DNA of 64,000 nt from Pseudomonadota bacterium (GCA_043797085.1 JAZDQA010000004.1:1-64000); one strand, 5' to 3'; positions 3,701-19,115 are shown, counted from the stretch's first letter. Notes: generated by a model not told the origin, from the sequence alone. Translations and numbers: made by a program.

Positions 3701-5617
3701 ATTCTCATGGCATTTTTCAAAAAGCTTCTAAAAGAGGGATGGGAGAGATGCGTTAAATTTGTTAGTGACTATTTCTCGATGGAATATAACGCTTTTAAAA
3801 AGCTTTATAAGTTTGATGAGAAGATGATCAAGCTTCCTCTAACTGAAGAGCGCTATCGAGAAATTATTGCAAATCTCAATGAAGAACAATCCAAAGTTTT
3901 TGAAGATAAAACCAATCGAGCTGTGATGGTACTTGCAGGTCCAGGAAGTGGTAAAACAAAAACACTTGTTCATAAAATAGCTTCACTTATTACATTGGAG
4001 AATCATAAACCGGATCATTTCCTCATGCTCACCCACGGCAGGGCAGCAGCCAATGAGTTTCGTACACGGCTATACAATCTAATCGGCGGGTTGGCATATG
4101 AAGTAGATATTATGACTTTTCATTCGTATGCTTTGCAGCTGATAGGGAAAAAAATATCGGATGAAAATCAGCTCTCCAATGCTATTTCTCTTGCAACTGA
4201 GGGGATAGCACGAGGAGAAATTGAGATACCGTTTAAGACGATGTTGATTCTTGATGAGTATCAGGATGTGAGTTTAAAAACATACCGATTCATAACGATG
4301 ATCTTCAAAAAAATGGAAGCGAACAAACGGATTATTGCAGTAGGAGATGATGATCAGTGCATCAACAATTTCGATGGCGATGATTGTGCAGATGTGACCT
4401 TTATGAAAGCGTTCGAGACAGAATTTAATGATAGTGCATCAGTAGAAGAAGAGGATGAAACTTCCGGTAATTTTGCACGCTATTCTCTACTAAATAACTA
4501 CCGAAGCAAGCACAATATCGTAACCTTTGCCAACACATTTGCTCGAACCATTCCCAATCGTCTTAAGCAGGATGATTTAATCGCAAATGATACGGGAAAT
4601 GGATATATTCAGATCGTAAATTATTCTCAGAACACTTCTATGATTGCAAATATAGCCAAAGCTATAGAAAACGATCCCTCTGAAAATATCGCGGTACTAT
4701 GCCGAACAAACAATGCTGTTTTGACCCTTTATTCTATTCTCAAAGCCAAAGAGATCAATGTTAAATACATTACCTCTAAAGACGGTTTTAGATTGGGTCA
4801 GCTTGTGGAGTTACAGGATTTTTTAGAACAGTGGAAAAAGTCATCGTATGTTGAAGCGGAAGATTGGATAAAACTACGCTATTCATCATCAGCAAATTAT
4901 CCACTTGCGCAAAAAGTGATTGAGCGGTTCATTAATGAAAATAATACGGAAAGCTTGGTACCTGAGTATTTAGCAGCGGCATTTGAAGAGTATCTCTATG
5001 ATATTGAGTTTGACGAATTTGAGTTTACCAAGGCAAAAGTGATTGTTTCTACGATGCACAAAGCAAAAGGGAAAGAGTTTGATAGTGTCTATGTAATGGT
5101 TGAAAACAACTTCATTCAGGATGACTATCAGCGTAGACTTTTGTATGTTGCCATAACTCGCGCCAAAGAAAACCTCTACATTCACACACAAGATCGATGC
5201 TTCAAACCAATGGAGCCTTTAGCTAACGAAGTTGTATCGGTGACGCAAATGGATGCTGAACCAGATAGCATCATTTTTACGATGGGATTGGGAGATCTGG
5301 CTCTTGCCAGTGACGCTGCTGCAAAAGGGATCAAATTATCCAATCCACAAGCTGGGGAAATGGTACGAATAGAGAAAGTAATGAATGAAGATGGATCGAT
5401 TTGGTTCAAACTCTCAAAAGATAGCAGAACAATATGCGTTCTTTCTAAACCTGATGGTGGAAAAAATCGCTTGAGTGATAAAATCCTCCAAAAAGAGTTG
5501 GAGGGTTATAGTCTTAGCCCAGATGTGACAATCGAATACATTGTCCGATGGAAAGAGACAATGGGTGACGAACGATATGATCAGGTTTTATGCAAGGTGT
5601 CAATGCAAAAGTCGTGA
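722..5617 (+). CDS. Large RecQ-family helicase fusion: N-terminal DEDD-like exonuclease domain, SF2 RecQ core, C-terminal SF1 UvrD-like helicase
   Basis: IDLE..GHN..D exonuclease-like motifs; RecQ motifs PTGGGKT, SPLQALM, DEAHCFSSWGHDFR, TATA, AFGMGID, QESGRGGR; second Walker A AGPGSGKT, DEYQD, VGDDDQ, NYRS, TMHKAKGKEFD, YVAITRAK. Confidence 0.88.
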   Translation: MGSSDILFIDLEVGVHTYKIDLVGAWLNNITYNGKSVNYIRELYFQYKPPYICGHNFINHDKKFLLETSFNPIFDTAKIIDTFYVSMLVYPDKLSHKLSKPYKTDVHIQNDPFGDCVATKDLLELMIERFRTYGPSMQSLLSSLLRKNPYYEAFFEYLNVEPQYIDVYEFFSTKIKCSKQRFLELLDESPAEMGIILVYLMTKKRTSLSYAVLQTFPKTVQLLKDLLYNQESIDLIQFANDEFGLPGFREFEARDSGSDLFSHELENISQLHIIESALRGESLLAILPTGGGKTFAFQMPALIKAQAYKALTIVISPLQALMKNHVESFREKNQNFKVAAISGYLSPIERLNAIAEVENGIIDILYLAPEALRSHSIFNALKKRIIERFVIDEAHCFSSWGHDFRHDYKYIASFIRDLQTSSPFQGIIPVSCLTATAKPEVLDDIKRYFSDRLDLTLSEYLASAKRTNLHYNAIEVADDKDKYETLVKEINRIGKKAIIIYIPQNARMCKDLCDKLLQDTRIISMGLEIEPFYSKIDSEIDDGKRHGRNKSDILNDFIDDKIDIVIATTAFGMGIDKPNIEAVIHYETSDSLESYLQESGRGGRSDTIDAECIVLYANKDFDKLFNQQNRSKIEYAEINRILKEIKKEKRNPAILSTKQIAEKAGIDTEDSSKDYDVMIKTALLELEEAGIIKRGRNTTKIYATSVKKEENTSAMEYVHKVLDPDKEILELYDEMIRIMSVIIGRSKLDPIEVDDLSEHSGVKRSDVHKVLYALAEYELIAMENDISAHITKGVKKELEAHFAFENKLVEFFKSLPDYQREFHLRDVNDMLGEKTNHIRLSKKIIQSFTHLAALAKKKFKVKFKKDFCLILEKGDMTKIAELIAIRQKIARGIVDTLLEKHSGNNDEIEFSSTELKKTISEVSKMSIEGFHHTLVYMHDTLKEFKLRRGRLIYYQAFAIEKTGRMSEAKPYQKMRDYNNSLKLYYERKTEAIHILMAFFKKLLKEGWERCVKFVSDYFSMEYNAFKKLYKFDEKMIKLPLTEERYREIIANLNEEQSKVFEDKTNRAVMVLAGPGSGKTKTLVHKIASLITLENHKPDHFLMLTHGRAAANEFRTRLYNLIGGLAYEVDIMTFHSYALQLIGKKISDENQLSNAISLATEGIARGEIEIPFKTMLILDEYQDVSLKTYRFITMIFKKMEANKRIIAVGDDDQCINNFDGDDCADVTFMKAFETEFNDSASVEEEDETSGNFARYSLLNNYRSKHNIVTFANTFARTIPNRLKQDDLIANDTGNGYIQIVNYSQNTSMIANIAKAIENDPSENIAVLCRTNNAVLTLYSILKAKEINVKYITSKDGFRLGQLVELQDFLEQWKKSSYVEAEDWIKLRYSSSANYPLAQKVIERFINENNTESLVPEYLAAAFEEYLYDIEFDEFEFTKAKVIVSTMHKAKGKEFDSVYVMVENNFIQDDYQRRLLYVAITRAKENLYIHTQDRCFKPMEPLANEVVSVTQMDAEPDSIIFTMGLGDLALASDAAAKGIKLSNPQAGEMVRIEKVMNEDGSIWFKLSKDSRTICVLSKPDGGKNRLSDKILQKELEGYSLSPDVTIEYIVRWKETMGDERYDQVLCKVSMQKS

Positions 5618-5623
5618 TCTTCG

Positions 5624-7096
5624 TTACAGTGCCATCAACGTTTGATACTCTTTAAGCGCATAATCGTCAGTCATTCCGCTGATATAATCAAGCAGGAGTC
5701 GGCAGCGATAATACCACTCCAACATTAGTCTTTCCTTATCGGTATATTCTTCCTTGATGGCTTCGACACTGACAGAATAGGCAACAATGTGTTTTTGAGA
5801 TAAACGACGAAAAAACTTGGAAGCCAGCCCATAATCGATTTGCTCATCTTTGAGTAATTTAGCCATATCATCAAATGGAACTTCGAGAATCGGTTTATAG
5901 AGGTTGAGGAGTCCTGATAGTATCGTATGCCCTTTGAGCTCTAGTGTCTCGACTTCGCGGTTATGGTAGATATGTTTCGTTGAGATATTTTGGAGGATTT
6001 TGAGAGCAATAAAATATTTGCTTTTTTTGTCAAATTCGAGAAGAGGATAATTGAATGTCCCATTAAAAATCGCTTCGTGGTTATCGATATAAACCTTAGT
6101 GACTTGAGCAACCAATTTCCCGATTAAAGCAGCGCGGATGGAGACGAGGAACATATTGAAACGGTATGGCTTCTCTTCACTCTTTTGTGCTTTGTCGTAC
6201 GCTCCTTGTACTAAATCAACGAGATAGGTTTCCTCGGTTCCGTACTTTTCATTCACCTTTGGCGATTCCGCCATAATCAGAGCGTAGATTTTGTCTAACG
6301 TAAGGATCTTTTTATCGACGGCATCTTCGAGATCGGCGGTAAGGTACGAGATATCATCCGCTGCTTCCATGACATAAGTGATCGGAAAGCGTGTGCCTTT
6401 AGACATTTCAAGAGCTTGGCATACCGTCTCGACAAACTCTTTTTCGGAATAGTAGTATCCCGGTTTCTTTTGGAGATAGGAGAGAGTGTCTGATATGTCC
6501 GGTTTGCTCTCGAAAGCTCCACGTGTGTATTTGAGGATTGCCGCTGTCTGGGTGTAGGATAAGTTGAGGCGTTGAAGTTTATGCACGATACGGATCGCCT
6601 GCGCATTGCCGTCGAAATTACTCAGGTCTTTGATGAGCATATCTCGAAACGGATGTACTGCTTCAGACATATTGGGATAGAGGGCATTTAAAATTGTGGG
6701 AGCCTCTTTTGCCATCCATGCATTGATTGATTCTTCAGCTGAGTGACCAAAAGGAGGATTGCCAATATCGTGTAACAGACTTGCCATCTCGGCAGTGGAA
6801 ACGAAAGCATTGTCCATCTCTTCCAATCCAAATGTTTCAGTTAGGTCTTGTTTTTTGATTTCGGAAAGGATACTTTTAGCGATATACCGGCTCGTCTGCT
6901 GTACTTCGAGTGAATGTGTTAGACGGCTACGGACTGCTGCATTGAGTTCGAGGGCGAATACCTGTGTTCTTTTTTGGAGCCGACGCAGAGCTGGGGCGGA
7001 GATGATACGACCACGGTCGCTCTCAACCGAACCATCAATATTAGGAATCTCATTCATCGCTCTGTGAATCGTCAGCTTTTTACGATAATCAATCAT
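5624..7096 (-). CDS. dgt: dGTP triphosphohydrolase (HD family, Dgt type); candidate anti-phage dGTPase
   Basis: RRLQKRTQVF, RSRLTHSLEV, LLHDIGNPPFGH, FDGNAQ, EAADDISY, DYISGMTD. Confidence 0.92.
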   Translation of the reverse strand: MIDYRKKLTIHRAMNEIPNIDGSVESDRGRIISAPALRRLQKRTQVFALELNAAVRSRLTHSLEVQQTSRYIAKSILSEIKKQDLTETFGLEEMDNAFVSTAEMASLLHDIGNPPFGHSAEESINAWMAKEAPTILNALYPNMSEAVHPFRDMLIKDLSNFDGNAQAIRIVHKLQRLNLSYTQTAAILKYTRGAFESKPDISDTLSYLQKKPGYYYSEKEFVETVCQALEMSKGTRFPITYVMEAADDISYLTADLEDAVDKKILTLDKIYALIMAESPKVNEKYGTEETYLVDLVQGAYDKAQKSEEKPYRFNMFLVSIRAALIGKLVAQVTKVYIDNHEAIFNGTFNYPLLEFDKKSKYFIALKILQNISTKHIYHNREVETLELKGHTILSGLLNLYKPILEVPFDDMAKLLKDEQIDYGLASKFFRRLSQKHIVAYSVSVEAIKEEYTDKERLMLEWYYRCRLLLDYISGMTDDYALKEYQTLMAL

Positions 7097-8576
7097 TTAG
7101 TACCTTTCTGAGTTTTTGATGCACTCTGACCATCGCCAGTGTATCGAGTTTGCAGTATTCTAGGAGAGCATGGCGGATACGCTCTTGCTCTACCTCTTCC
7201 ATCGTTGCAAGCTTGGCGTAGGCGTTCATCGCTTCACCGCCGTTTTGGACTCCGTCGAGCTCTTTATAGGCTTGTGCCATCTCTGGGACGAGGGCAGGGA
7301 GGACGTATTTGATCGAATAGCTTCCGTTCATGGATGGGGTGACGTAATGCCCCTTTTGAAACGGCACCATCAGATCACGGATATTGGGGATGATGCTTTT
7401 GAGGCGTTCGCTGAGATCGGGGAAGCTAAGGGCTAGTTTTTCAATCACTCCTTTCTCGAAGCTCATGTTATACGCCAGTACCGTGACGTTGTCGGGGATA
7501 TCATTGATCAGCTGTTGCGCCAATGCGTAGCGCGGATCGGCTCCTGCGGGTGCCAGAAACTCCCGATGCTCCAGCTCCCCGTTCGCGTGCTCGATATGGA
7601 GCGAATACTGAAACGGTATTTGCTGATAGGGGCTGATCCCGTTCCATTGTGGAACCGCCTGTTGAAACGTCTCGAAATCGAGATGGTAGATCGGATAGGT
7701 GAGGGTGGAGAGAAACTCACGGATTGCGTCACTGTCGATGTAGGTACGCTGGCTTTTCCAGTTATCGACTTTTTGCTGTTGGATGGCGGTCATTTTGTAG
7801 CTATCGGGAATATCCTCGATACGAACGATCCCTTGATTGTACAGTTCGATCTGATTCTTGCTCCCGAGGTTAAAGATATTAAAGACGGAGTAATCGGGGA
7901 TGATTCGCTGTACTTTCCAGCAGTAGTGCATCGCGTCGCACTCATAGGGGTTTTTGCAGTGCTTGCCGATCTCAATGGCGGGTTCGTTCTCTCTATCTGC
8001 GAGATATGTTTCAAACTCGGCCAGTTTGGCAGGGACACCGCTCATCAGCGCATCTACTGCACCGCTCACATCGGCGACGGTAAAGAGGGCGCTTAGATCG
8101 AGTTCATCGCCCCGAACGTAGGAGGTGTCGATATGGACGACATAGCAGTTGGTGACGGTATGCCCGAGGCTCTCGATGACATAGCGCTGTATCGAGACAT
8201 CGCGCAGATAGATCTCCTTGACCTCCGAGGAGCTTTTAACCTCGTATATCTCTACACCATTGGGAGTAACGCGGAGGACATCGACCATCACGACGATCCC
8301 CTCATGGATAAACGTTGCTTCATAGATATACTCTAACCCCTCATCCATCCGCTCTCGTGTCAGCTCCGCCATCCCTGTGAAGTTTTTCTCCATATAGGGG
8401 ATTTCACGACCGTTTGGGAAGAGGGCGCATGCCAGATCGCCGACGATATTTCCTGTCTCGAATCGTGCGAGGGCGGTGGCATCGGGTGGAGTCAGCACCT
8501 CTGGGCTTTGTTTTTTCAGCCAGAGGGATTTCGGGCACTGGATTCCGCGGGTGTAGAGGGATTTGGAGAGAAGCAT
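7089..8576 (-). CDS. DUF2779-type protein: Cas4/AddB-like PD-(D/E)XK nuclease plus RNase H-like DEDDy domain
   Basis: LSKS..GIQCPK.LWL N-terminus; EATF..VDVL..YEVKSS; Cys cluster HCKNPYECDAMHYC; LDFETF, AYNMSFE, YCKLD. Confidence 0.8.
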   Translation of the reverse strand: MLLSKSLYTRGIQCPKSLWLKKQSPEVLTPPDATALARFETGNIVGDLACALFPNGREIPYMEKNFTGMAELTRERMDEGLEYIYEATFIHEGIVVMVDVLRVTPNGVEIYEVKSSSEVKEIYLRDVSIQRYVIESLGHTVTNCYVVHIDTSYVRGDELDLSALFTVADVSGAVDALMSGVPAKLAEFETYLADRENEPAIEIGKHCKNPYECDAMHYCWKVQRIIPDYSVFNIFNLGSKNQIELYNQGIVRIEDIPDSYKMTAIQQQKVDNWKSQRTYIDSDAIREFLSTLTYPIYHLDFETFQQAVPQWNGISPYQQIPFQYSLHIEHANGELEHREFLAPAGADPRYALAQQLINDIPDNVTVLAYNMSFEKGVIEKLALSFPDLSERLKSIIPNIRDLMVPFQKGHYVTPSMNGSYSIKYVLPALVPEMAQAYKELDGVQNGGEAMNAYAKLATMEEVEQERIRHALLEYCKLDTLAMVRVHQKLRKVLND

Positions 8577-8585
8577 AATAAAAAT

Positions 8586-10724
8586 TTATCCTATAATTTC
8601 ACATCTATTGAATGTATCAATAATAAAATTTTGATCATTTTCTGCATTTTCTAAAATAATCGAACAAAACGGTATATTATTATAGTAATCGATAAAATTA
8701 TAAAAACCTTCTAGTCTCTCAATAAAACCTTCAATAGTCATTTCAGCAATTACTATTTTTATATAACCTTCATTTTCATCAATATATATTTTTAACTTTT
8801 GATCAGGGTCTATTGTTTCAAAAATGGGTGTTGGTATATGGTTCATTAGTATATTTTCAATGTCGATAATATTTTGTGTTAAATTCAAAATCTCTATTAT
8901 TTGTGTTTTTGTATTCAAGTAGTCATTAAATTTTAAATATTTTTTCCCAATAATATAATTTTCTTCATTTGCACCAATAAACATATAGTCATTTCCAATA
9001 TTACTTTGAAGAATGAATTTTTTGTTATCTATAGATAATTCTAAGATATTACCTATAGCTTTAACCGTAAAAGAAATAGTTTTTTTATTTCCTATGTCAA
9101 TTATAATGACTTCATTGTTAATATGTTTTTGATATAGATTGTAAAACCAATTATTAAAATGAATTAATCCATCCTCATATTTTCCATTTTCAAAGAAGCA
9201 CATTGCTAAGCCATATAATGCAGTTGTATTGATTGGATTTAATTTTAATGCTTCTTTGAAAAGTTGTTTTGCTTTTGCATATTTACCTAAAAATCTTTCT
9301 ACTTCACCCTTCTGACTTAGTGCTTGTTCCATATTTTTATCTAGTGCGAGAGCTTTATCAAGATTTCTGAGTACATCATTATTTAAAGGATTTAAAATAT
9401 ATTGACAAATAGCTAAGTTTAAATAACTATTTTCAAAATGATCATTTTTTTCAATAGAGAGATTGAAATAATTTATTGCATTTTCTAAATCGTGTAAAAA
9501 CATATAGGACACAGCTATATTATAGAGAATCTTATCATCCAATTCGTGAGTATTTATTTTCATAAATACCGAAATAGCTTCCTCATATTTATGAAGTTTT
9601 CCTAAGCATATGCCATAGATCATTAAAAATTTTGTTGTATTGTTATATTTTTTACAAATTTCAATTGCTTCCTGATATTCATTCAATTGAACGTATATGG
9701 CAGAAATTTTATACTCTAAAGCTTCTGTTTGATCGTTTTGGTTTTCTACTTCTAAAATCTTTTTATATTTGATCAAGGCTTCTGGAAATTCTTGGTTTTG
9801 AATGCATTTTTCTGCTTCATAAATTTCAATAGTATGGTTCGGACATAGTTCTAAAATTTTATTTAACTCTATTAGCAGTTCTTTATTCGTATAAAAATCA
9901 AGTACTTTTTCTATATGGATTAATTTTAATAATCTATCTAAAACATTTCTATTTAATAATCTACTGGTCTTTTCTGAATTGCTGGATTTTTTTGATACAT
10001 CAAAATAAATAGAGCAAAAAAGTTGTTCCAGATTTGTTGTTCTGTCATATATTAATTTCTCCGATTTGAGTAATTCAGCTATTTCATGTTCAAGATTTTC
10101 AATATCTTCTTTTGGATCTGATACTTGTGAGATATCAAATCTTATTTTTTTCAAGAATTCTATAAAATCGTCTTTTTCTAGATCATCTTTGAAAGTAAAC
10201 AATTTACTTTTAATCTCTTTCGTTTTATGTTCTTTTGATTTTTTATCTTTTATGGTGTCAAGCCCCTTTTCTAATCGTTTTGTTGCATAAGTAATAAGAT
10301 TGTTTTTAATAATTAAAATGATATTGTCTGGAATTTCATATATACCCTTTTGACGGTTCTCATACCACTTTCTTAATTCCTTACCTGCTATTGGTTTAAA
10401 ATCAGAGTTTGTGATAAAATAAAATTCATCAACATCGTATTGGCGATTTAAGTTATAGAAATTTAATATAGATGAAATGAAATGTTCATCATTGATTCCA
10501 AGTTTGTCTGAATAGCTTTTTACTTGATGAAATGTATATTTTTGTGTATTTTGATCGTGTTCTCCAATGTCATCTTCCCATTCACAATAAATATCTATAT
10601 CATTGTCACAGATAAAATTATTTATCCATAGTTTCATCGTTTTTAAATACTGATAATGGAATCCTCGATTTGTAGCTATTGCATCTGTGTTTTCTTTGAA
10701 TATATGAAGTTCTTTATTTGACAT
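8586..10724 (-). CDS. Cap4/DUF4297-like dsDNA nuclease domain fused to TPR repeats
   Basis: N-terminal RGFHYQ..CEWEDDI..FHQVKS..FITN motif set; TPR-like repeats at about aa 300-530 (YNIAVSY..AINYFNLSIE, ALSQKGEV..AKQLFKEAL, ALYGLAMC); very AT-rich. Confidence 0.7.
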   Translation of the reverse strand: MSNKELHIFKENTDAIATNRGFHYQYLKTMKLWINNFICDNDIDIYCEWEDDIGEHDQNTQKYTFHQVKSYSDKLGINDEHFISSILNFYNLNRQYDVDEFYFITNSDFKPIAGKELRKWYENRQKGIYEIPDNIILIIKNNLITYATKRLEKGLDTIKDKKSKEHKTKEIKSKLFTFKDDLEKDDFIEFLKKIRFDISQVSDPKEDIENLEHEIAELLKSEKLIYDRTTNLEQLFCSIYFDVSKKSSNSEKTSRLLNRNVLDRLLKLIHIEKVLDFYTNKELLIELNKILELCPNHTIEIYEAEKCIQNQEFPEALIKYKKILEVENQNDQTEALEYKISAIYVQLNEYQEAIEICKKYNNTTKFLMIYGICLGKLHKYEEAISVFMKINTHELDDKILYNIAVSYMFLHDLENAINYFNLSIEKNDHFENSYLNLAICQYILNPLNNDVLRNLDKALALDKNMEQALSQKGEVERFLGKYAKAKQLFKEALKLNPINTTALYGLAMCFFENGKYEDGLIHFNNWFYNLYQKHINNEVIIIDIGNKKTISFTVKAIGNILELSIDNKKFILQSNIGNDYMFIGANEENYIIGKKYLKFNDYLNTKTQIIEILNLTQNIIDIENILMNHIPTPIFETIDPDQKLKIYIDENEGYIKIVIAEMTIEGFIERLEGFYNFIDYYNNIPFCSIILENAENDQNFIIDTFNRCEIIG

Positions 10725-10897
10725 AATTATTTCTCTTTAACGATATTTTTTGTTTCAGACCGTGCGAGTGCTGTCGCATCGGGAATAGGGATTTAGAGAA
10801 GGTTATATTATTCTCAATAGTTTAAATTTGCTTGAGGTTCTTTATGAGCTAATACGAGGCTCTAAAATAGAGTTCGCATTTAACGCTCTTAACTTCT

Positions 10898-11107
10898 CTA
10901 TACCTTTGAGTATCTATAAGTGCCTTTAATTGCAGATGCTAAATACCCACCAACTGAAGCTGCATGTTCTAATTCATTAAATATTCTCTCTGGAACATCA
11001 AAATATTGGTATGTTCCACCGTTTTTGAACTCAACTTGCAATGTTGAACTCTCTGCATCATAACCAATTGCTTGAATATTACTTGAATCTACATGTTTCA
11101 TTTCCAT
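10898..11107 (-). CDS. KTSC domain protein
   Basis: VDSSNIQAIGYD..LQVEFKNGGTYQYFDVP..AASVGGY..IK signature; AAGGA RBS. Confidence 0.92.
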   Translation of the reverse strand: MEMKHVDSSNIQAIGYDAESSTLQVEFKNGGTYQYFDVPERIFNELEHAASVGGYLASAIKGTYRYSKV

Positions 11108-11120
11108 TATTTGTTCCTTA

Positions 11121-12995
11121 TCATTTTATTTTATCTATCCTAGGGTTTTGAGCCCGCCATGTTTCAATTAATTCTTCATAATGGGGATTATCCTCCATTT
11201 TGATGCCCCAACCACCAGGATTTTGTGAATCTTCTAAAGATATTTCATCATAGATTATAGGGTCTTGACTATCTGGTCTTCTATTTTTTGGTGGTGCTTC
11301 TATTGTAGTTCTCATTGGCAATTTAACTGCTTCACCCAAAATAATGGCTTCCCCCGTTCTTAAAATAGGTAGCATACCAGTTAGTCCATCTAAATTATCA
11401 GATAATGCAGATGTTATGTGATTTCTATCTGAGGCATTAGTTAGCCTGAGTGCGAAAAAAGTACCGCATTGTGAAAGAATTGTTGAATTGATTTCTGAGG
11501 GTCGTTGACTTACAATCATGGCACCAATACCATACTTTCTTCCTTCTTTAACAATACGTTGAACGACTTTTGAAGCCATTCCTTTGAAGTCATCATTTAG
11601 ATAGATATGCGCTTCTTCCATAACTACTAACAATGGTCTATGTCTACCGCCTTGAGATAAATTTCTAGCCCAAAATAAAGCCTCATACAATAGTCTAAGA
11701 AGAGCGCCTATTGTTGTTTGTAAAATATCTGCAGGCACTCCAGATAAATCTAGTATTGTGACTGGTCTGTCACTACCAATCCAGTTTTTCAGTAAGCAAT
11801 CTAGATCTTCTGCGACTTTTCCATCAGCTTCTGGCATCCAAGTATCGGGTTTAAAAATGAAGTCATATCTAGGAATTCTGAGCTTTGTGCCCAATAACAA
11901 AACCTGTTTTCCTATATTTAAAGAACCTGGTAAATAATTTACTTTCACATCCCCAGTTGCAGTTGCAATATTTTTAAAAATAGGTGGTATACCTTTTAGT
12001 GCATCTCCTTTTAACTCTTTGCCACTCGCATCCGTTTCATAAGCTAAATTATCAATTGGTCTACCAGTTTTATTACCACTGTAATATGTTCCAAACACTT
12101 CAACATATAATTCATACCATAGATTATGAAGACTGAATGGGATGGGTGAATCTACACTTAGTATGTCTATAGATACACCTTTTTTTGGGTATTTTTCCAA
12201 TGATTCAATTTTATATTTATGAACTCTCTCCATCACTATATTTTTATCTTTTTCACTACTAAAATCACCAAAGCTAATTTCGCATAATTCATCAAAGTTT
12301 AATGCCCAAAAGGGAATATGCAATACTTTTTCTTTTAATTTTGAGCCTCTATCTCCATTTATCTTATATATATTTGCTTTTTCCTGTAAAGCCTGCCCAT
12401 ACTCACCATGAAGGTCTAACATGATAATTCTTGCAGACGGATATTTATCACTGTCAGATAAGGCGTTAATAATACTTGATACTGTCGTAGATTTACCAGA
12501 ACCTGTTGTGCCGACAACTGCTGAATGCCGAGTAATAAGTTTATTTACATCGACCAATGCAGGAATTGAGTCTGCATTTGAAATGTGACCTAATTTTACA
12601 AAATACGGCTTATCAGGTTGCCCATAAATATTTTTCAGTTCTTTTTCTGATACTAAATGCACTTCATCCCCAATAGTTGGGTATTGGGAAAGTCCTCTTT
12701 GAAAGACTCCATTTCTTGGACCTTCGCCTATTAATTGAATTGTCATCCATCTATTGCCATGAAGCTGACTTTCAGCTTGTTTTGTAGGCACAGCACTCGC
12801 TCCAACCTGACTTATAATTCCAAATAAATCATGAAAGCCTATAGGTATTCTAATAAAGCTGCCTATTTGACCAACTCTATATCCTTGTCCATCGATGTAT
12901 ACAAAACCTGTTAATGATTCTTTTGACAAGGAAATACTGACAGTAGTTCCATTAACATCTTGCACATCGCCAAGATAGGTTTCTTTGCTAGACAT
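11121..12995 (-). CDS. herA: HerA/DUF87 ATPase (HerA of a SIR2-HerA anti-phage system)
   Basis: N-terminal HAS-barrel-like region, HSAVVGTTGSGKS, LDLHGEY, MEEAH, RIVKEGRKYG, SQRPSE; overlaps the SIR2 gene by 8 bp. Confidence 0.92.
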   Translation of the reverse strand: MSSKETYLGDVQDVNGTTVSISLSKESLTGFVYIDGQGYRVGQIGSFIRIPIGFHDLFGIISQVGASAVPTKQAESQLHGNRWMTIQLIGEGPRNGVFQRGLSQYPTIGDEVHLVSEKELKNIYGQPDKPYFVKLGHISNADSIPALVDVNKLITRHSAVVGTTGSGKSTTVSSIINALSDSDKYPSARIIMLDLHGEYGQALQEKANIYKINGDRGSKLKEKVLHIPFWALNFDELCEISFGDFSSEKDKNIVMERVHKYKIESLEKYPKKGVSIDILSVDSPIPFSLHNLWYELYVEVFGTYYSGNKTGRPIDNLAYETDASGKELKGDALKGIPPIFKNIATATGDVKVNYLPGSLNIGKQVLLLGTKLRIPRYDFIFKPDTWMPEADGKVAEDLDCLLKNWIGSDRPVTILDLSGVPADILQTTIGALLRLLYEALFWARNLSQGGRHRPLLVVMEEAHIYLNDDFKGMASKVVQRIVKEGRKYGIGAMIVSQRPSEINSTILSQCGTFFALRLTNASDRNHITSALSDNLDGLTGMLPILRTGEAIILGEAVKLPMRTTIEAPPKNRRPDSQDPIIYDEISLEDSQNPGGWGIKMEDNPHYEELIETWRAQNPRIDKIK

Positions 12996-14304
12996 TCTGT
13001 CCTTCCTTAGGCGTTCCTATTATTTTTTTTAGAAAATTTGTAAATATAGAAAAGTCTCCAAGCTTGACTAAATTTTCATGCTCATCTGAACCATCATTTT
13101 TTTTAACATTAGCAATGAAATTCATAATATCGATATCTTCTTCGCTAGTATTTAGAGACTTTTTCCAGTCACCTAAATTTGTTCCGATTATGGCTTTGTC
13201 AAATGTCCAAATATTAAGATTATGCTGATTATTAGCCAAGCGATATGCCTCATGATAACGTTCTATGACTTTGCAAAACTCATTCAATTGGTATTGATAA
13301 TCCATTAGTGCTAAATTTATTTTAGTTGCTGACCATTTTAATTTTCCAAATTTCAAATGAATATTATTATTAGCAAACATTGTATATTTTTCAAACATTA
13401 ATCCAAGCACCATTGCCGTTGGATTTGCCTTTAGTGCATTTATGATTGTGTCATTTAAATGACCGTCATTAAATGAATAGCCAGATAAAATCAATAAAGA
13501 TGATTTTTTGCGAATAAATCTACTTAATTGATCAATTAATGCTAAATATGGCATTTTCCGACTTTCTTCATATTTCAAATGAGAAGGATAAATCAAATGA
13601 GATGCACCTTCCTTGATCTCTGAGGAACGATACACTTTTTTTTGACCTTCAACTTCTTCTTGATACCAATTAATAGAACCGTGTATTTTCCATAATCTTG
13701 ACCAATGGATAGGTATTAAATTGTCTTCAAGTGCTCTAAGATCAAAAAATGATCTTCTTGCTCCGACAAAACCATCGAAATATGCGACTTCCAAGTCTTC
13801 AAGTGCTTGTTCCATTAATAAATCGTAATTTGTTGTAAATAATTCGACGGAGACTTTTCTGTCTATTGACCTTATCCATTTACATAGACGGTGGTATGGT
13901 GTCTCTTGATCTGGTAGGCCTACGTCTAGTTTTTCTACAATTTTTGCAGAAATGATTTGTTCCAAACCTTTTAAGTCAGTTTCAGAAAGTCCTCTTACTT
14001 CACCGCCCTTAGAAACCAATAATAAGCTACGAAGAAAACTTAAAATGTCTTCTATATTTTCTATATTTTTTTCTGCCTTTTTCAATTCAGCTAACAGTAT
14101 TGTATATTTAGCATTATCTGTTAATTGCTCATTAATAAACTTTGTAAGACCTGCAACATCAGGTATTAATGGCCATTGACCTTCTGGCATATTTACTGAT
14201 AAAGGGCATCCTGCTGATATGAAAAATCCAATAGACTCATTATCTTGTGACAATGACTGGCGAAGATACTTTAAATGTCGAATAGGATCATGGTAATTAT
14301 TCAT
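12988..14304 (-). CDS. SIR2-family NADase (SIR2 of a SIR2-HerA system)
   Basis: FFISAG, TTNYDLLME, YFDGF, KIHGSINW, GYSFND.HLN motifs; CAGGAG RBS. Confidence 0.9.
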   Translation of the reverse strand: MNNYHDPIRHLKYLRQSLSQDNESIGFFISAGCPLSVNMPEGQWPLIPDVAGLTKFINEQLTDNAKYTILLAELKKAEKNIENIEDILSFLRSLLLVSKGGEVRGLSETDLKGLEQIISAKIVEKLDVGLPDQETPYHRLCKWIRSIDRKVSVELFTTNYDLLMEQALEDLEVAYFDGFVGARRSFFDLRALEDNLIPIHWSRLWKIHGSINWYQEEVEGQKKVYRSSEIKEGASHLIYPSHLKYEESRKMPYLALIDQLSRFIRKKSSLLILSGYSFNDGHLNDTIINALKANPTAMVLGLMFEKYTMFANNNIHLKFGKLKWSATKINLALMDYQYQLNEFCKVIERYHEAYRLANNQHNLNIWTFDKAIIGTNLGDWKKSLNTSEEDIDIMNFIANVKKNDGSDEHENLVKLGDFSIFTNFLKKIIGTPKEGQNV

Positions 14305-14344
14305 TTGATACTCCTGTATTTACTAAACATGGTGCACTGTCCAT

Positions 14345-16702
14345 TTACAACTCCACCACTCTCTCAAACATCTCCTTAATCTCAGTTTCATGAGAGATTA
14401 AAAATATCTGCCGATACGATTCGCTGATCGTGTGAAACGCTTCCATGATCTGGATGCGCCGTTCCTCGTCTTGTGAACCGAATACCTCGTCAAATGCCAA
14501 AAACCCAATATTGCCGCCACCGCTAAGTTCCCCAAGTGTTTTGGAGATGGCGATGCGCAGGACAAGGTTGGCGAGATCGATCTCTCCGCCGCTGAACCGC
14601 TCGATCGGGTAGCGCTCGCCGTTGTCGTAGATGTAGAAATCGAACTCGGGGCTAACTTCGATGTGCTGATAGCGTCCACGGGTGATGCGGCTGTACATGT
14701 CGCTGGCGACTTCGCCGATGCGGGGGGCGACGCGGGCGTTGATATGGGTTTTGAACTCGGACATGACTGCTTTGAGTTTCTCGTAGTCGGCTTGGTCATT
14801 TTCACGGGTTTTGAGAGATTCCCGCTGGGTTTCGTCGCGTTTGATCTCTTTGTCGATCGCTTCGATGTCGCGGCGGATGTTGGTCTGCTCTAGCACTGCG
14901 GCGTTCAGCTCGACCCCTTTGGCATCTTTAGTAGTTTCAGAAAGTTTCGCGTGGGTGATCGCTTCGTTATGGGTTTCTATACGGTAGGTGTCGGCGGCGA
15001 TAAGGGCTTGGGTAGCGGCGACAGAGGCTTCATCCGCTTTGATCTGCGTTTGGAGAGCTTGTAGGGCTTCGGTTTTAGACGGGATGGTGGAGATGAGCGC
15101 TTCGAGTTTGATGAGGGCTTCGACCTGCGGTTTGAGAGATTGATACTGCTCTTTGAGGGTGTTATGAGCGTTTTCATCGTAGGTGATGCTCCCAAGTTCT
15201 GCAAGGGCGACTTTGTTACTCATCCCCCGCGTTTCGACCTCACGGAATAACTCTTGGGCTTTGAGGAGGTCTTTGGATTTGCTCTGGAGGAGGGCGATCT
15301 GTGTTTGCAGGGCATTGCATTTGAGCTGTGCTTCGTCGGTGATCTTTTGGGAAGAAGCTTTTTGCTCGTTCAGGACGTTAAGGCGAAGTTGCAGGGCATT
15401 GATCTGCTTTTGGTAGACCTCATTGATCTCAGTGTGAAGCGATGCGATGACACTGTCATACTGCTCTATCAACGGACGGGTGCAGGTGGGGCAGGAGGAT
15501 TCCCGTCCCAGATCGGTGATCGTTTCGACCTGTTTGGTCACTTTCGCGATATTGGAGCGGTTGGAGCCGATCTCAGAGGTGAGGGCAGTGATCTCGGTGT
15601 CGAGTTTGAGGAAGGCCGCTTTAAGCTCTGAGAGGGCGGTTTGATCGCTATGGAGCTGTTTTTGCAGATCTTCCAGTGGAGTGATCTCATTAGTTAGCTG
15701 TGCCACTTCTTCTTTGCGTGTAGTGTACCCTTTTCGCAACTCCTCTTGCTCTTTTTCTAATCCGACTTTTTGGAGGAATTTGGTTTTTAGTTCGTCTTGG
15801 GCTTTAAGCGATAGCTCCAACGTGGCGAGTTGCGCTTTGAGAGGAAGTTGCGCCGTGTAATGGCTCTGGTGGGCGTTGAGGGTTTTGAGCTCGGTTTCGA
15901 GTTCGACAAGCTGTTTTTGGTGGAGGGCGAGCGTCTGTTGCGCTTTTTCGAGTGCATCGAGTTTCTTTTGCCGCTCTTCTTTGGCTTTTTGGTGGGTCTC
16001 TACGAGTGCTTTGGCGGCTTCGTAGGCGGTTTTTAGCTTTAGGGATTCCTCGGTGAGGGTTTTGAGGGTCGCTTCGAGGGTTTGGGAGAGGGCGGTTTTA
16101 GTGCTTAGGTCGTCGCGGTGCTGTTTGAGAACGTCATCACCGAGAAGAAACCCCGAAGCATTTTTGATATCACGGTTCAGCTCTCGCAGCTCCTCTCTGA
16201 TCATCTCCTCGATTTTATCAATCTTCTCCAACCCAAGCAATCGGCGCATCATCGCCTTGCGTTCGTCATTTTTCATCGAGCTGAGTGCCGTGAGTTCCTT
16301 TTGGGAGGCGAATACGGTGTGTAAAAACGCCTCTTTCCCCATGCCGAGTAGTTTCGTGATCGATAACGTTACCTCTTTAGCACCGGTGGCAATATTCTCA
16401 TCCCCCTCTTTGAGAGTTGCATAGGCGGTGAGGGCTTTCCCCCGGAACTCACGGATAGCGGTGTAACTTTTTCCTTCGATCTCAAAGTTCAGCTCAACTT
16501 TGACGCTTCCATCACTTCCGGCTGTAGGGATTAATTTTTTATCTGTTCGGTTTTCCCCGTATAGAGCAAAGAATACCCCGTCGAATATCGTCGATTTTCC
16601 CCGTCCATTGCGTCCGAGTATTCCGCACAGACCGCTTTCGAAAGTGATCTCATACGAGGCGTAGCGTTTGAAGTTCTGGAGTTTCAGCGATTCAAGCGTC
16701 AT
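14345..16702 (-). CDS. sbcC: SbcC/Rad50-like SMC ATPase
   Basis: GRNGRGKST Walker A, coiled coil with CPTC zinc hook, FSGGE signature, FDEVFGSQD, ISHE; start moved to ATG 16702 (MTLESLKLQNF), overlapping the sbcD stop. Confidence 0.88.
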   Translation of the reverse strand: MTLESLKLQNFKRYASYEITFESGLCGILGRNGRGKSTIFDGVFFALYGENRTDKKLIPTAGSDGSVKVELNFEIEGKSYTAIREFRGKALTAYATLKEGDENIATGAKEVTLSITKLLGMGKEAFLHTVFASQKELTALSSMKNDERKAMMRRLLGLEKIDKIEEMIREELRELNRDIKNASGFLLGDDVLKQHRDDLSTKTALSQTLEATLKTLTEESLKLKTAYEAAKALVETHQKAKEERQKKLDALEKAQQTLALHQKQLVELETELKTLNAHQSHYTAQLPLKAQLATLELSLKAQDELKTKFLQKVGLEKEQEELRKGYTTRKEEVAQLTNEITPLEDLQKQLHSDQTALSELKAAFLKLDTEITALTSEIGSNRSNIAKVTKQVETITDLGRESSCPTCTRPLIEQYDSVIASLHTEINEVYQKQINALQLRLNVLNEQKASSQKITDEAQLKCNALQTQIALLQSKSKDLLKAQELFREVETRGMSNKVALAELGSITYDENAHNTLKEQYQSLKPQVEALIKLEALISTIPSKTEALQALQTQIKADEASVAATQALIAADTYRIETHNEAITHAKLSETTKDAKGVELNAAVLEQTNIRRDIEAIDKEIKRDETQRESLKTRENDQADYEKLKAVMSEFKTHINARVAPRIGEVASDMYSRITRGRYQHIEVSPEFDFYIYDNGERYPIERFSGGEIDLANLVLRIAISKTLGELSGGGNIGFLAFDEVFGSQDEERRIQIMEAFHTISESYRQIFLISHETEIKEMFERVVEL

Positions 16703-17822
16703 TGTTGACCTCGTCATAGCGTGCAAAGAGTGTTGCTACTTTGGAGTTTAGACGTGTGAACTCTTCGGGTGTGGTGGTTTGCTCTTCTAAAAACGCGCCG
16801 AAATACTCCTGTAACGAGGCGGCATTCACACTCTCCGTCGCGGCAGAGGCTTCACTGCGTCGAAATTTGCGCTGGATTTGGACATTTAGGGCGGTAGGAA
16901 AACACCCTTCGATATCTCGGTTGGCAATGTCGATGGATTGGGTGGCACTGAGGTTTTCGAGGGTGATGGAGAGGAGAGCACCATCAACGACTAACGATTC
17001 AGCGTGTGATCGGAGTTCATCGAAAATATCCTCTGAGGTTTGGGCATCGACACGGAGACGGTGGCTGGGACGGAGGGTGATGGGGTGGAATATCACTTCA
17101 AAAGAATCCCCTAATGTTACGAGGACATATCCTTTGTCATTGCGTGCATCACCGCTGCTGGTTCGCTCTGTCGATCCGGCATAGTAGACGTTAGGGTGTT
17201 TGCCGACACTCCCAAACCCGTGCCAGTGACCGAGGGCAACGTAATCAATTTTCTCAAACAGCTCCTCTTTCTCACGCGGATAAACCCGCTCACCGTACTC
17301 CTCCATCATAAACTGCGCCCCGACGGAGCAGTGGAGCATCATGATGTTATGTTTATCCTCATCTACCGAAGCTTCACATTCCTCAATCGCCGCGAGGTTG
17401 GAGAGTTCATCGTTGATATGGGGGATACAGTGGAAATTGATATCATCAAATATTACTTTCTCGTACGCCTCTTCAAACACGGGATAGATATGATCGAGTG
17501 TCCGTAATGCCGCGAGGATCGGGGAAGCCGAACGGGTACGAGGAGTAGAGTGGTTTCCCGCGATGATAATCGTCGGGATCTGAGCGACACTGAGACGTTT
17601 GAGCTGAGTCAGACAAAAGCTGATAGCACGGTTGGATGGGTGAGGGCGGTGGAAGAGGTCTCCGGTATGGATAACGTAATCAGGTTTAGTCTCGATTATC
17701 GCATCGATCACCTGAGTAAAAGCATCGTAAAAATCGGCTTCACGTTGGTTGATGCCGAATTCATTGACGATCTCAAGATCGTTACAACCAAGATGCGTGT
17801 CAGAGAAGTGGAGAATTCTCAA
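16692..17822 (-). CDS. sbcD: SbcD/Mre11-like metallophosphoesterase nuclease
   Basis: HFSDTHLG, TGDLFH, AGNHS, YVALGHWH, YAGSTER; TTG start with AAGG RBS. Confidence 0.9.
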   Translation of the reverse strand: MRILHFSDTHLGCNDLEIVNEFGINQREADFYDAFTQVIDAIIETKPDYVIHTGDLFHRPHPSNRAISFCLTQLKRLSVAQIPTIIIAGNHSTPRTRSASPILAALRTLDHIYPVFEEAYEKVIFDDINFHCIPHINDELSNLAAIEECEASVDEDKHNIMMLHCSVGAQFMMEEYGERVYPREKEELFEKIDYVALGHWHGFGSVGKHPNVYYAGSTERTSSGDARNDKGYVLVTLGDSFEVIFHPITLRPSHRLRVDAQTSEDIFDELRSHAESLVVDGALLSITLENLSATQSIDIANRDIEGCFPTALNVQIQRKFRRSEASAATESVNAASLQEYFGAFLEEQTTTPEEFTRLNSKVATLFARYDEVNNDA

Positions 17823-17948: not shown

Positions 17949-19115
17949 ATGTCAATTTTTATTAATCGTGAACAGTTGTATCATCAAGTATGGAAAATTC
18001 CTATGACAAAACTCGCACCTTTATATAATCTCTCCAATTATGAGCTCAAAAAGATATGTGATCGTTTTCTGATTCCAACGCCTAAAGCTGGATATTGGGC
18101 AAAACTCTCTTTTGGAAAACCTGAAGATATCGTACCTTTGCCCAAATGGAAAATTTGTGTGCCGCGTAGCATTCAAAGAAAACCAAAAACAGGAACAATA
18201 GCTCCGCATTCAAAAATAATTGATTCACCTATCTCGACACTAGAATCCGTTAAAATAATTGAACTCACTCCTAGAAAAGTGGATCATGGCATTGTGGTCA
18301 AAAAAACTCTTATACATATGCACTCATTAATTGAAAAAACACAACAAGCACTAAAAAAATCCAAAGCAGGTGAACATGGTAGATTATATCCCGGAAGTGA
18401 TGGAATAGCTATACATGTATCTCGTGAAAATGTAAAACGGTCATTATTGATTATGGATGCTATTTTTAAATGGTTTGAGAGTCGAGGGTATAAAATAATA
18501 AAACCTTTTAGTAACGATTCAAGAACATTTTTAAGTGTTGATGGTATTGATATTGAGATTGAATTATTTGAAAAGTCAAATGTAACTGGAAAGGTCAAAA
18601 GTAATTGGGGGTATGAGTACAATCAATATACACCATCTGGAAATATTACACTACAAATTAAATCATATACATATGGAACTAATATACGCACTCATTGGTC
18701 AGATGGTAAAAGACGAAAGGTAGAAGATTTATTAAACAGTTTTATTGATAGTTTTTTTGAGATCGTTGACTGGAATAAACGAGAAAATGAGCGAAGAGAA
18801 CGTGACCGTTTGGAACGAGAAGCTAGACGAATTGAACAAATTTATCAAGAACAGTGCCATCAATATGAAAATGAGATGTTTAATAATTTGATCCAAGAAT
18901 CTAATAATTTGGCTATGAGTACAAAAATAAAAGAATATGTATTTGCTGTAGAACAAAAGGCTAAATATAACTATCAAGAGAAAAATTATCCTAAAGACCT
19001 ATCTGATTGGTTTGAATGGGCGAAAAAACAAGCTAATAAGATTGATCCTTTAAAAGATAAATGGCCATCCTACATTGCATCTATTGAAATGATTGATAAA
19101 TCTAAAATACGATGA
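17949..19115 (+). CDS. Hypothetical protein with HTH-like N-terminus, typical of mobile regions
   Basis: 388-aa ORF with AAGGA RBS; REQLY..VW..PM..LA..Y.LS..L.K.C..IP.P..GYW N-terminal pattern; AT-rich. Confidence 0.7.
   Translation: MSIFINREQLYHQVWKIPMTKLAPLYNLSNYELKKICDRFLIPTPKAGYWAKLSFGKPEDIVPLPKWKICVPRSIQRKPKTGTIAPHSKIIDSPISTLESVKIIELTPRKVDHGIVVKKTLIHMHSLIEKTQQALKKSKAGEHGRLYPGSDGIAIHVSRENVKRSLLIMDAIFKWFESRGYKIIKPFSNDSRTFLSVDGIDIEIELFEKSNVTGKVKSNWGYEYNQYTPSGNITLQIKSYTYGTNIRTHWSDGKRRKVEDLLNSFIDSFFEIVDWNKRENERRERDRLEREARRIEQIYQEQCHQYENEMFNNLIQESNNLAMSTKIKEYVFAVEQKAKYNYQEKNYPKDLSDWFEWAKKQANKIDPLKDKWPSYIASIEMIDKSKIR

Follow-up and report, generated by a model that had tools for sequence, protein, structure and literature searches.

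The 64,000-nt window analysed here (Pseudomonadota bacterium, GCA_043797085.1, JAZDQA010000004.1:1-64000) carries, on its minus strand between positions 8586 and 14304, four consecutive genes for a SIR2 protein, a HerA ATPase, a small KTSC protein and a nuclease with TPR repeats (nuclease-TPR). These genes very probably represent two independent anti-phage elements that adjoin each other in a defence hotspot of the chromosome, a split SIR2-HerA-KTSC system and the nuclease-TPR protein. The first is a known system in its common split-gene form, and the second is a rare stand-alone candidate. An earlier note on this DNA, made from the sequence alone, had proposed a single system in which one HerA serves two effectors. 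Our reading draws on homology, synteny, the interchange of fused and split genes, fold comparisons and the variability of the hotspot, all of which were observed directly.

Homology and conservation of the SIR2-HerA-KTSC unit

The gene layout given in the earlier note was borne out in every part. SIR2 (12988-14304, minus strand, 438 aa) is the predicted NADase-type effector of the SIR2-HerA system, and its stop is overlapped by 8 nt (ATGTCTAG) by the gene for HerA (11121-12995, minus strand, 624 aa), an ATPase without the terminal KTSC module. After a spacer of 13 nt (11108-11120, minus strand) with an AAGGA ribosome-binding motif, the KTSC gene follows (10898-11107, minus strand, 69 aa); its product appears to be the distal end of the C-terminal arm domain of HerA, made as a detached protein. 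A gap of 173 nt (10725-10897, minus strand) marks the boundary between this unit and the nuclease-TPR gene (8586-10724, minus strand, 712 aa).

The two larger proteins were assigned to their families by strong matches: SIR2 to Pfam PF13289 (2.1e-16) and the PADLOC SIR2 model PDLC04093 (3.8e-152), and HerA to PF01935 (5.1e-36) and the PADLOC HerA model PDLC04105 (3.6e-165). Both resemble the solved SIR2-HerA complex of Paenibacillus sp. 453MF (PDB 8WIV, 8WJ3, 8WLD and 8WOF; Liao et al., NAR 2024, PMC11472057, cited here and below from part of its text). SIR2 matched 8w9l_A with an E-value of 1.3e-90, and HerA residues 2-582 aligned to residues 8-581 of 8wiv_A with an E-value of 1.1e-199. When SIR2 is aligned with the Paenibacillus protein, its motifs TTNYD (157-161) and HGS (208-210) fall at the residues named in PMC11472057 as N163, D165 and H212, and by this alignment SIR2 keeps the catalytic Asn, Asp and His of the NADase. 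HerA has a Walker A motif, GTTGSGKS, at 162 and a Walker B motif, LVVMEE, at 456. The two systems thus share their SIR2 and HerA families, catalytic motifs, SIR2-then-HerA order and a KTSC fold that ends the HerA module. They differ in that the Paenibacillus HerA includes KTSC within a single chain of 696 aa, against 624 aa and a separate 69 aa in the window, and in that SIR2 has 381 aa there and 438 aa here, with an extra segment at about 306-345. The arm domain of the Paenibacillus 453MF type is present in the window, apparently supplied in trans.

The small protein belongs to the KTSC family (Pfam PF13619, 2.4e-24; no PADLOC model matched it) and is the only KTSC encoded in the genome. Its best PDB sequence match was not a KTSC orphan but the C-terminus of a HerA, namely the last 66 residues (631-696) of the 696-aa chain 8wiv_A (E-value 1.4e-14), which comes from the Paenibacillus structures introduced above. 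In PMC11472057, HerA residues 576-696 form a C-terminal arm domain that wraps the neighbouring RecA-like domain, a "unique C-terminal extension" that stabilises the split-spiral hexamer; the paper names this region the "arm domain," and the word KTSC occurs 0 times in it. An AlphaFold2 model of the window's KTSC (predicted local distance difference test score 95.7) superposed on the HerA chains of 8wld, 8wof, 8wj3 and 8wiv with Z scores of 11.2-12.6 and a root-mean-square deviation of 1.2-1.4 Å over 67 residues, at 48% identity. These chains come from both HerA-alone and SIR2-HerA cryo-EM maps, and because the model fits them in both, the KTSC fold is ordered in the solved machine. We suspect that helices alpha19-20 of PMC11472057 are the two KTSC helices, in which case the linker between them would be the conserved A-x-S-x-G motif; looking for helix numbers in the paper gave none.

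Sequence and model together indicate that KTSC is the distal arm module of a Paenibacillus 453MF-type HerA made in trans. The earlier note had taken it for an accessory that extends the SIR2-HerA system. The tie to HerA stood, as its occurrence in related loci (below) shows; the extension did not, because the solved prototype HerA ends in the same KTSC fold and carries it fused, so that KTSC is no add-on to the known system.

A locus scan of genome_contigs, limited to one genome per species, gave 30 loci with HerA 63-91% identical, one of which was a 799-bp fragment and was set aside. SIR2, HerA and KTSC stood in the same order at 29/29 usable loci, which came from Gamma-, Beta- and Alphaproteobacteria, Bacteroidota and Desulfuromonadota-type records. 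At 28 of the 29, KTSC has its own ATG or GTG 0-14 nt past the HerA stop, usually behind GGAG or AGGA, and at the remaining one (L021) it is in frame with HerA and hence fused. Five further genomes, from a 201-genome sample of the bacterial family to which the window belongs, carry a divergent triad (SIR2 29-33%, HerA 38-43% and KTSC 43-48% identical), and KTSC directly follows HerA in all of them. The count of related SIR2-HerA loci followed by KTSC, which the earlier note had proposed, accordingly came to 34/34, with 33 separate genes 0-14 nt past the stop and 1 fusion. An alignment of 29 KTSC sequences has ten invariant columns. Three more distant HerA genes (26-35% identical) in the 201-genome sample had no KTSC in their flanks; two of these genomes (G198 and G224) had no KTSC anywhere, and in the third (G105) the sole KTSC sits at its triad.

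KTSC also follows this system through the family sample, where it occurs in 10 genomes: 6 at intact triads, 2 at a HerA 3' remnant and 2 beside a 963-965-aa protein of no Pfam or PADLOC family. In this last pair (L058, G130, 3294-6729; L059, G144, 1579-4998) the adjoining KTSC is divergent (38-39% identical), and the two genes may be another KTSC-partnered system. Two loci have a second KTSC copy downstream of the first (L005 10147-10353; L017 11034-11222). At 11/29 loci (for example, L001 5040-6449), the gene immediately upstream of SIR2, in the same orientation, codes for a DUF2130 protein (PF09903, 1e-92).

Fused and split states interchange. Among the 120 closest HerA homologues in the protein collection (81-95% identical), 15 are fused (693-700 aa) and 105 are split (620-634 aa), which makes the window's split form the commoner one. 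On a HerA tree with the KTSC part left out, the fused state requires no fewer than 8 changes, compared with a mean of 14.3 for shuffled labels, and well-supported branches force at least 6 of the 8. Of 12 longer proteins found to carry a close KTSC, 9 are full-length HerA-KTSC fusions and 1 is a HerA_C-KTSC fragment. Because the two states interleave on the tree, we regard fused and split genes as interchangeable versions of one protein module.

The split could also have a function of its own, with KTSC acting as a dissociable regulator or nucleic-acid sensor whose binding to and release from HerA set the activation threshold. The predominance of the split form (105/120 close homologues and 33/34 loci) is in keeping with this idea, as is the finding in PMC11472057 that the arm stabilises the split spiral, the state of low activity that HerA takes by itself. 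Stand-alone KTSC proteins of the same fold also exist: PDB 7X8C, from Methanolobus vulcani, and 4RGI match the window's KTSC in size, with Z scores of 15.2-15.4, deviations of 0.6-0.8 Å and 39-41% identity. They are orphan structures, whereas the window's KTSC is tied to HerA, and a literature search for 7X8C found no paper. Iyer and colleagues have predicted KTSC to be "DNA-binding" (PMC9503650) and "RNA-binding" (PMC7824862; both cited from part of their text). The earlier note had gone further, treating KTSC as reported to bind single-stranded nucleic acid; this was not confirmed, as the literature found gave only one laboratory's predictions, and our searches on the KTSC domain turned up neither binding data nor a functional study. 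Against a regulatory role stand the interchanges themselves, at least 8 of them among proteins at least 81% identical. They argue that fused and split forms are functionally equivalent and, in turn, that covalent attachment does not prevent function. We therefore consider a dissociable regulator rather unlikely and retain the reading of KTSC as an arm module translated separately.

The nuclease-TPR protein and the defence hotspot

The 712-aa protein combines a predicted Cap4/LmuA-like nuclease (1-~300), TPR repeats (~300-525; ~310-525 in Pfam) and an uncharacterised C-terminal domain (526-712), for which the ESM Atlas gave no usable feature match and the structure rows all had TM scores of at most 0.43. 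The nuclease assignment of the earlier note holds at the level of fold. An AlphaFold2 model of residues 1-300 (predicted local distance difference test score 89.9) matched the nuclease domains of LmuA, HerA-DUF4297, HamA, Cap4 and Avs3 with a Foldseek probability of 1.00 and query-normalised TM scores (TMq) of 0.45-0.51. At the level of sequence the Cap4_nuclease family PF14130 reached 22.9 bits (E 1.1e-4), under its 26.2-bit cut-off. The assignment gains support from the PADLOC model for LmuA, which matched at 2.7e-10, and from D52, Q67 and K69, three residues that do not vary among 53 homologues. Pfam found no NTPase family in the protein, and there is no P-loop motif.

Full-length relatives are rare: three homologues (P0122-P0124), 62-76% identical, were found among 5.8 billion clusters, and scans of metagenome_contigs and viral_contigs gave no relative. 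The parts are more widespread. The N-terminal 300 residues have 211 representative relatives; among those scanned with Pfam, the nuclease is followed in 20/34 by an NTPase of the NACHT, NB-ARC, nSTAND3 or another AAA type, and 16/34 carry TPR, WD40/beta-propeller or pentapeptide repeats, an architecture that is Avs-like by its domain content. Residues 304-703, covering the TPR and C-terminal parts, match a stand-alone 680-aa protein of a Metabacillus plasmid at 29% identity (E 8e-31); its N-terminus is of another kind, and neither SIR2 nor HerA is encoded in its neighbourhood. The same module is a separate gene on a Niallia plasmid. On these Bacillaceae plasmids (L054 4218-6260; L055 3995-6029), it thus stands behind a different N-terminal domain in one case and follows a 338-aa ORF (open reading frame) as its own gene in the other. 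On the simplest reading of these sequences, nuclease-TPR would be a modular protein that joins effector and sensor, works on its own and happened to land in a defence hotspot, and it may be an NTPase-less, single-protein relative of the Avs-type sensors.

The hotspot itself is well delimited. On one side of the four genes lie an SbcC/SMC-like ATPase (14345-16726, minus strand) and an SbcD-like metallophosphoesterase (16692-17822, minus strand), both identified with Pfam. On the other are a DUF2779 protein (7089-8576, minus strand), whose start is 9 nt past the nuclease-TPR stop, and a dGTPase-like HD protein (5624-7096, minus strand), both identified with Pfam and PADLOC. In five relatives from the family, the triad occupies the same chromosomal slot, between the SbcC/SbcD-like pair (or an SbcC-like remnant) and DUF2779. 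In G025, a genome of the same genus, the SbcC/SbcD-like pair recurs at 92% identity next to another SIR2-HerA-KTSC allele. Across the variable slot from the triad, genomes of this genus have a DUF2779 that is 88-92% identical. What lies between KTSC and DUF2779 changes from one relative to the next: 13 bp in L050, a PDC-S31/DUF2971 gene in L049, two FRG/PDC-S15 genes and a DUF7379-like gene in L051, and uncharacterised genes in L052 and L053. Compared with these five, only the window has nuclease-TPR there. The interval from the SbcC/SbcD-like pair to DUF2779 and the dGTPase (5624-17822 in the window; L049-L053, L056 and L057 in relatives) is a defence hotspot, and its contents in relatives include divergent SIR2-HerA-KTSC alleles and PDC-S31, FRG/PDC-S15, PDC-S06 and uncharacterised genes. 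A relative's DNA contig (25 differences in 396 bases) joins ~8570 to 10938 and skips the nuclease gene, a weak hint of an empty site.

Further observations at the borders are recorded here for completeness. In L049 (6394-6531) and L052 (6919-7041), both of the same genus, the SbcC/SMC-like gene upstream of SIR2 is reduced to its last 41-46 codons, and the rest seems to have been deleted. A DUF2779 homologue (41% identical), which also matches RNase_H_2, lies directly upstream of SIR2 at L015 (5284-6741). At the island edge of the window, the plus strand encodes a 1631-aa fusion of a DEAD/DpdF-like and a UvrD/GajB-like helicase (722-5617; PADLOC DpdF, 5.4e-70), and beside the island there is a 388-aa ORF of no Pfam or PADLOC family (17949-19115, plus strand). 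The SMC-like neighbour matches PADLOC LmuB (1.6e-28). A Lamassu system made of this gene and the nuclease was considered and rejected: the SMC-like gene overlaps the SbcD-like gene, lies 3.6 kb off across SIR2-HerA-KTSC and is 92% conserved in G025, which is without the nuclease.

Composition separates the nuclease gene from the triad. GC content is 0.318 for SIR2, 0.356 for HerA, 0.338 for KTSC and 0.252 for nuclease-TPR, compared with 0.50-0.52 for the flanking genes and 0.390 for the whole window. The "one AT-rich block" of the earlier note is correct insofar as all four genes fall below their flanks; it is not uniform, with nuclease-TPR at 0.252 against 0.32-0.36 in the triad and a drop from 0.34 to 0.25 across the 173-nt gap. 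The structure that the note had seen in this gap is real, with a minimum free energy of -36.9 kcal/mol (z -3.7 relative to shuffles, a more stable fold). A consensus scan of 10725-10897 called no terminator-like site and no strong promoter.

One groundwater metatranscriptome library contained contig pieces identical to the window over a span of 8919-13059. They include the KTSC-HerA junction (10929-11295), a bridge between HerA and SIR2 (12753-13059) and pieces on the nuclease-TPR gene, among them 10427-10780; positions 10781-10928 were uncovered by any identical contig piece of this library. Such contigs, from one run, reveal neither transcripts nor where these end, and the library may contain DNA. 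The pieces attest presence in an RNA library rather than transcription and say nothing firm about co-transcription.

These data bear on the proposal of the earlier note that one HerA motor drives two effectors, SIR2 and the Cap4/DUF4297-like nuclease-TPR, with KTSC as an accessory sensor. The co-directional genes in one AT-rich block favour it, and so does the resemblance of the nuclease fold to the DUF4297 of HerA-DUF4297 (9c1m_G, probability 1.00, TMq 0.50). Iyer et al. (PMC9503650) also mention HerA-KTSC variants with an endoDNase, but there it replaces the sirtuin. The fold is about equally near to LmuA, HamA, Cap4 and Avs3, however, and among the PADLOC models LmuA matched and DUF4297 did not. 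The nuclease's N-domain relatives are fused to STAND NTPases rather than paired with HerA. A nuclease-TPR homologue occurs at 0/34 related SIR2-HerA-KTSC loci, and 100 related genomes gave only TPR-level matches; the slot in relatives is filled by unrelated genes or empty, and the GC gap to the triad is ~8-10 points. Of the co-occurrence with SIR2-HerA pairs that the note had expected for both genes, the KTSC half was found at every related locus and the nuclease half at none. Because it is absent from the 34 loci, differs in composition, sits in a variable slot and has stand-alone relatives, we take nuclease-TPR to be unrelated to SIR2-HerA, and a dual-effector HerA system to be very improbable.

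Proposed mechanism and points against it

Defence by the Paenibacillus SIR2-HerA pair was reportedly first demonstrated by Gao et al. in 2020, and Garb et al. in 2022 are said to have described NAD+ depletion by it. According to PMC11472057, the Paenibacillus HerA forms a hexamer that associates with a ring of SIR2, and this assembly activates the NADase, nuclease, ATPase and helicase functions. By homology with this solved complex, the first element of the window (10898-14304), a SIR2-HerA of the Paenibacillus sp. 453MF type with a split HerA, would assemble in the same way, and its assembly would switch on the SIR2 NADase/nuclease and the HerA ATPase/helicase. The 624-aa HerA appears to end past the proximal helices of the arm, with the distal part, KTSC, translated separately from a start 13 nt downstream. 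The free KTSC would then dock non-covalently on HerA at the position of the fused domain, completing the arm, and would help to hold neighbouring HerA subunits in the split-spiral state. In the second element (8586-10724), a rare stand-alone protein, the TPR and C-terminal module would sense a signal and control the Cap4-like DNA nuclease without HerA.

Several points weigh against this two-element reading. Binding of KTSC to HerA in trans, the enzymatic activities and defence itself are steps that we infer. Frame breaks occur in SIR2 or HerA at 4/29 loci (L004, L021, L023 and L029). SIR2, HerA, KTSC and nuclease-TPR all run in one direction, and the terminator scan of the 173-nt gap was negative, so read-through transcription into the nuclease gene is possible. 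At the loci of its three full-length homologues, nuclease-TPR could conceivably be linked to SIR2-HerA. Finally, G235 and G237 keep an intact KTSC ORF beside a ~113-bp HerA 3' remnant where SIR2-HerA has been replaced (L057, G235, ~6303-6656; L056, G237, ~6477-6830). These relics are 70-71% identical to the window's KTSC, with DNA 74-77% identical to window positions 10899-11233, and lie next to a PDC-S06 AAA_13 ATPase. Because KTSC persists there after replacement, the mere presence of an intact KTSC beside HerA sequence does not suffice to prove that it is functional.

That KTSC is a non-functional leftover or unrelated passenger beside a plain two-gene SIR2-HerA system, as these relics and the KTSC-free E. 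coli-type structures might suggest, is barely credible given its adjacency at every related locus across several phyla even where HerA falls to ~38-43% and KTSC to 43-48% identity, its invariant columns, its preserved starts and ribosome-binding motifs, its recurrent in-frame fusion to HerA and its ordered place in the solved structure.

Relation to known systems and wider meaning

Among other characterised systems, the E. coli-type SIR2-HerA (PDB 8J4U, 8SU9 and related entries) is likewise a two-component defence system, and its proteins match those of the window (HerA 2.3e-34, SIR2 9.7e-15). It is the more distant type: its proteins are 28% and 23% identical to the Paenibacillus ones and its SIR2 oligomer and interface differ (PMC11472057), and the KTSC query, which among HerA systems in the PDB matched only the 8wiv group, found nothing in its chains. 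The DUF4297-HerA system (PDB 9C1M, 8ZIQ and 8XAU) has a related HerA (E 1e-49 to 1e-55), and its nuclease shares the Cap4/DUF4297 fold with the N-domain of nuclease-TPR. There, however, the nuclease gene is a conserved companion to the system's own HerA, whereas the window's nuclease lies past KTSC and a 173-nt gap, is not co-conserved at any of the 34 loci and carries TPRs and an extra domain. Avs-type STAND proteins and LmuA also begin with a Cap4-like nuclease (Avs3, 8dgc_A; LmuA, 9nxx and 9hr5), and homologous N-domains occur on NACHT, NB-ARC and nSTAND3 proteins with TPR, WD40 or pentapeptide sensors. Nuclease-TPR differs from the Avs type in having no central STAND NTPase and from Lamassu in having no dedicated LmuB or LmuC partner.

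The phage side offers one further lead. Of 50,697 phage records, 17 encode a stand-alone KTSC protein, the best being that of Caulobacter phage Seuss, 53.6% identical over its full length. A free KTSC subunit could be an exchangeable control point of SIR2-HerA, a spiral-locking clamp that is titrated, released or displaced, with phage KTSC proteins as mimics. We regard this as a long shot; if it were true, a phage KTSC could plug into HerA and either disarm or trip the system.

Treating nuclease-TPR as a mere neighbour removes the dual-effector idea and flags a rare candidate single-gene defence protein, and it delimits a well-defined hotspot running from the SbcCD-like pair to DUF2779. For work on SIR2-HerA, the natural split provides a simple handle on the role of the arm domain, and cloning SIR2 and HerA from split loci without the 69-aa ORF may yield an incomplete HerA. 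A literature search for a three-gene SIR2-HerA found no paper. The system is catalogued as having two genes, with no PADLOC model for KTSC, whereas its common form in this clade has three, and the third gene encodes a domain already visible, though unnamed, in the solved structure.

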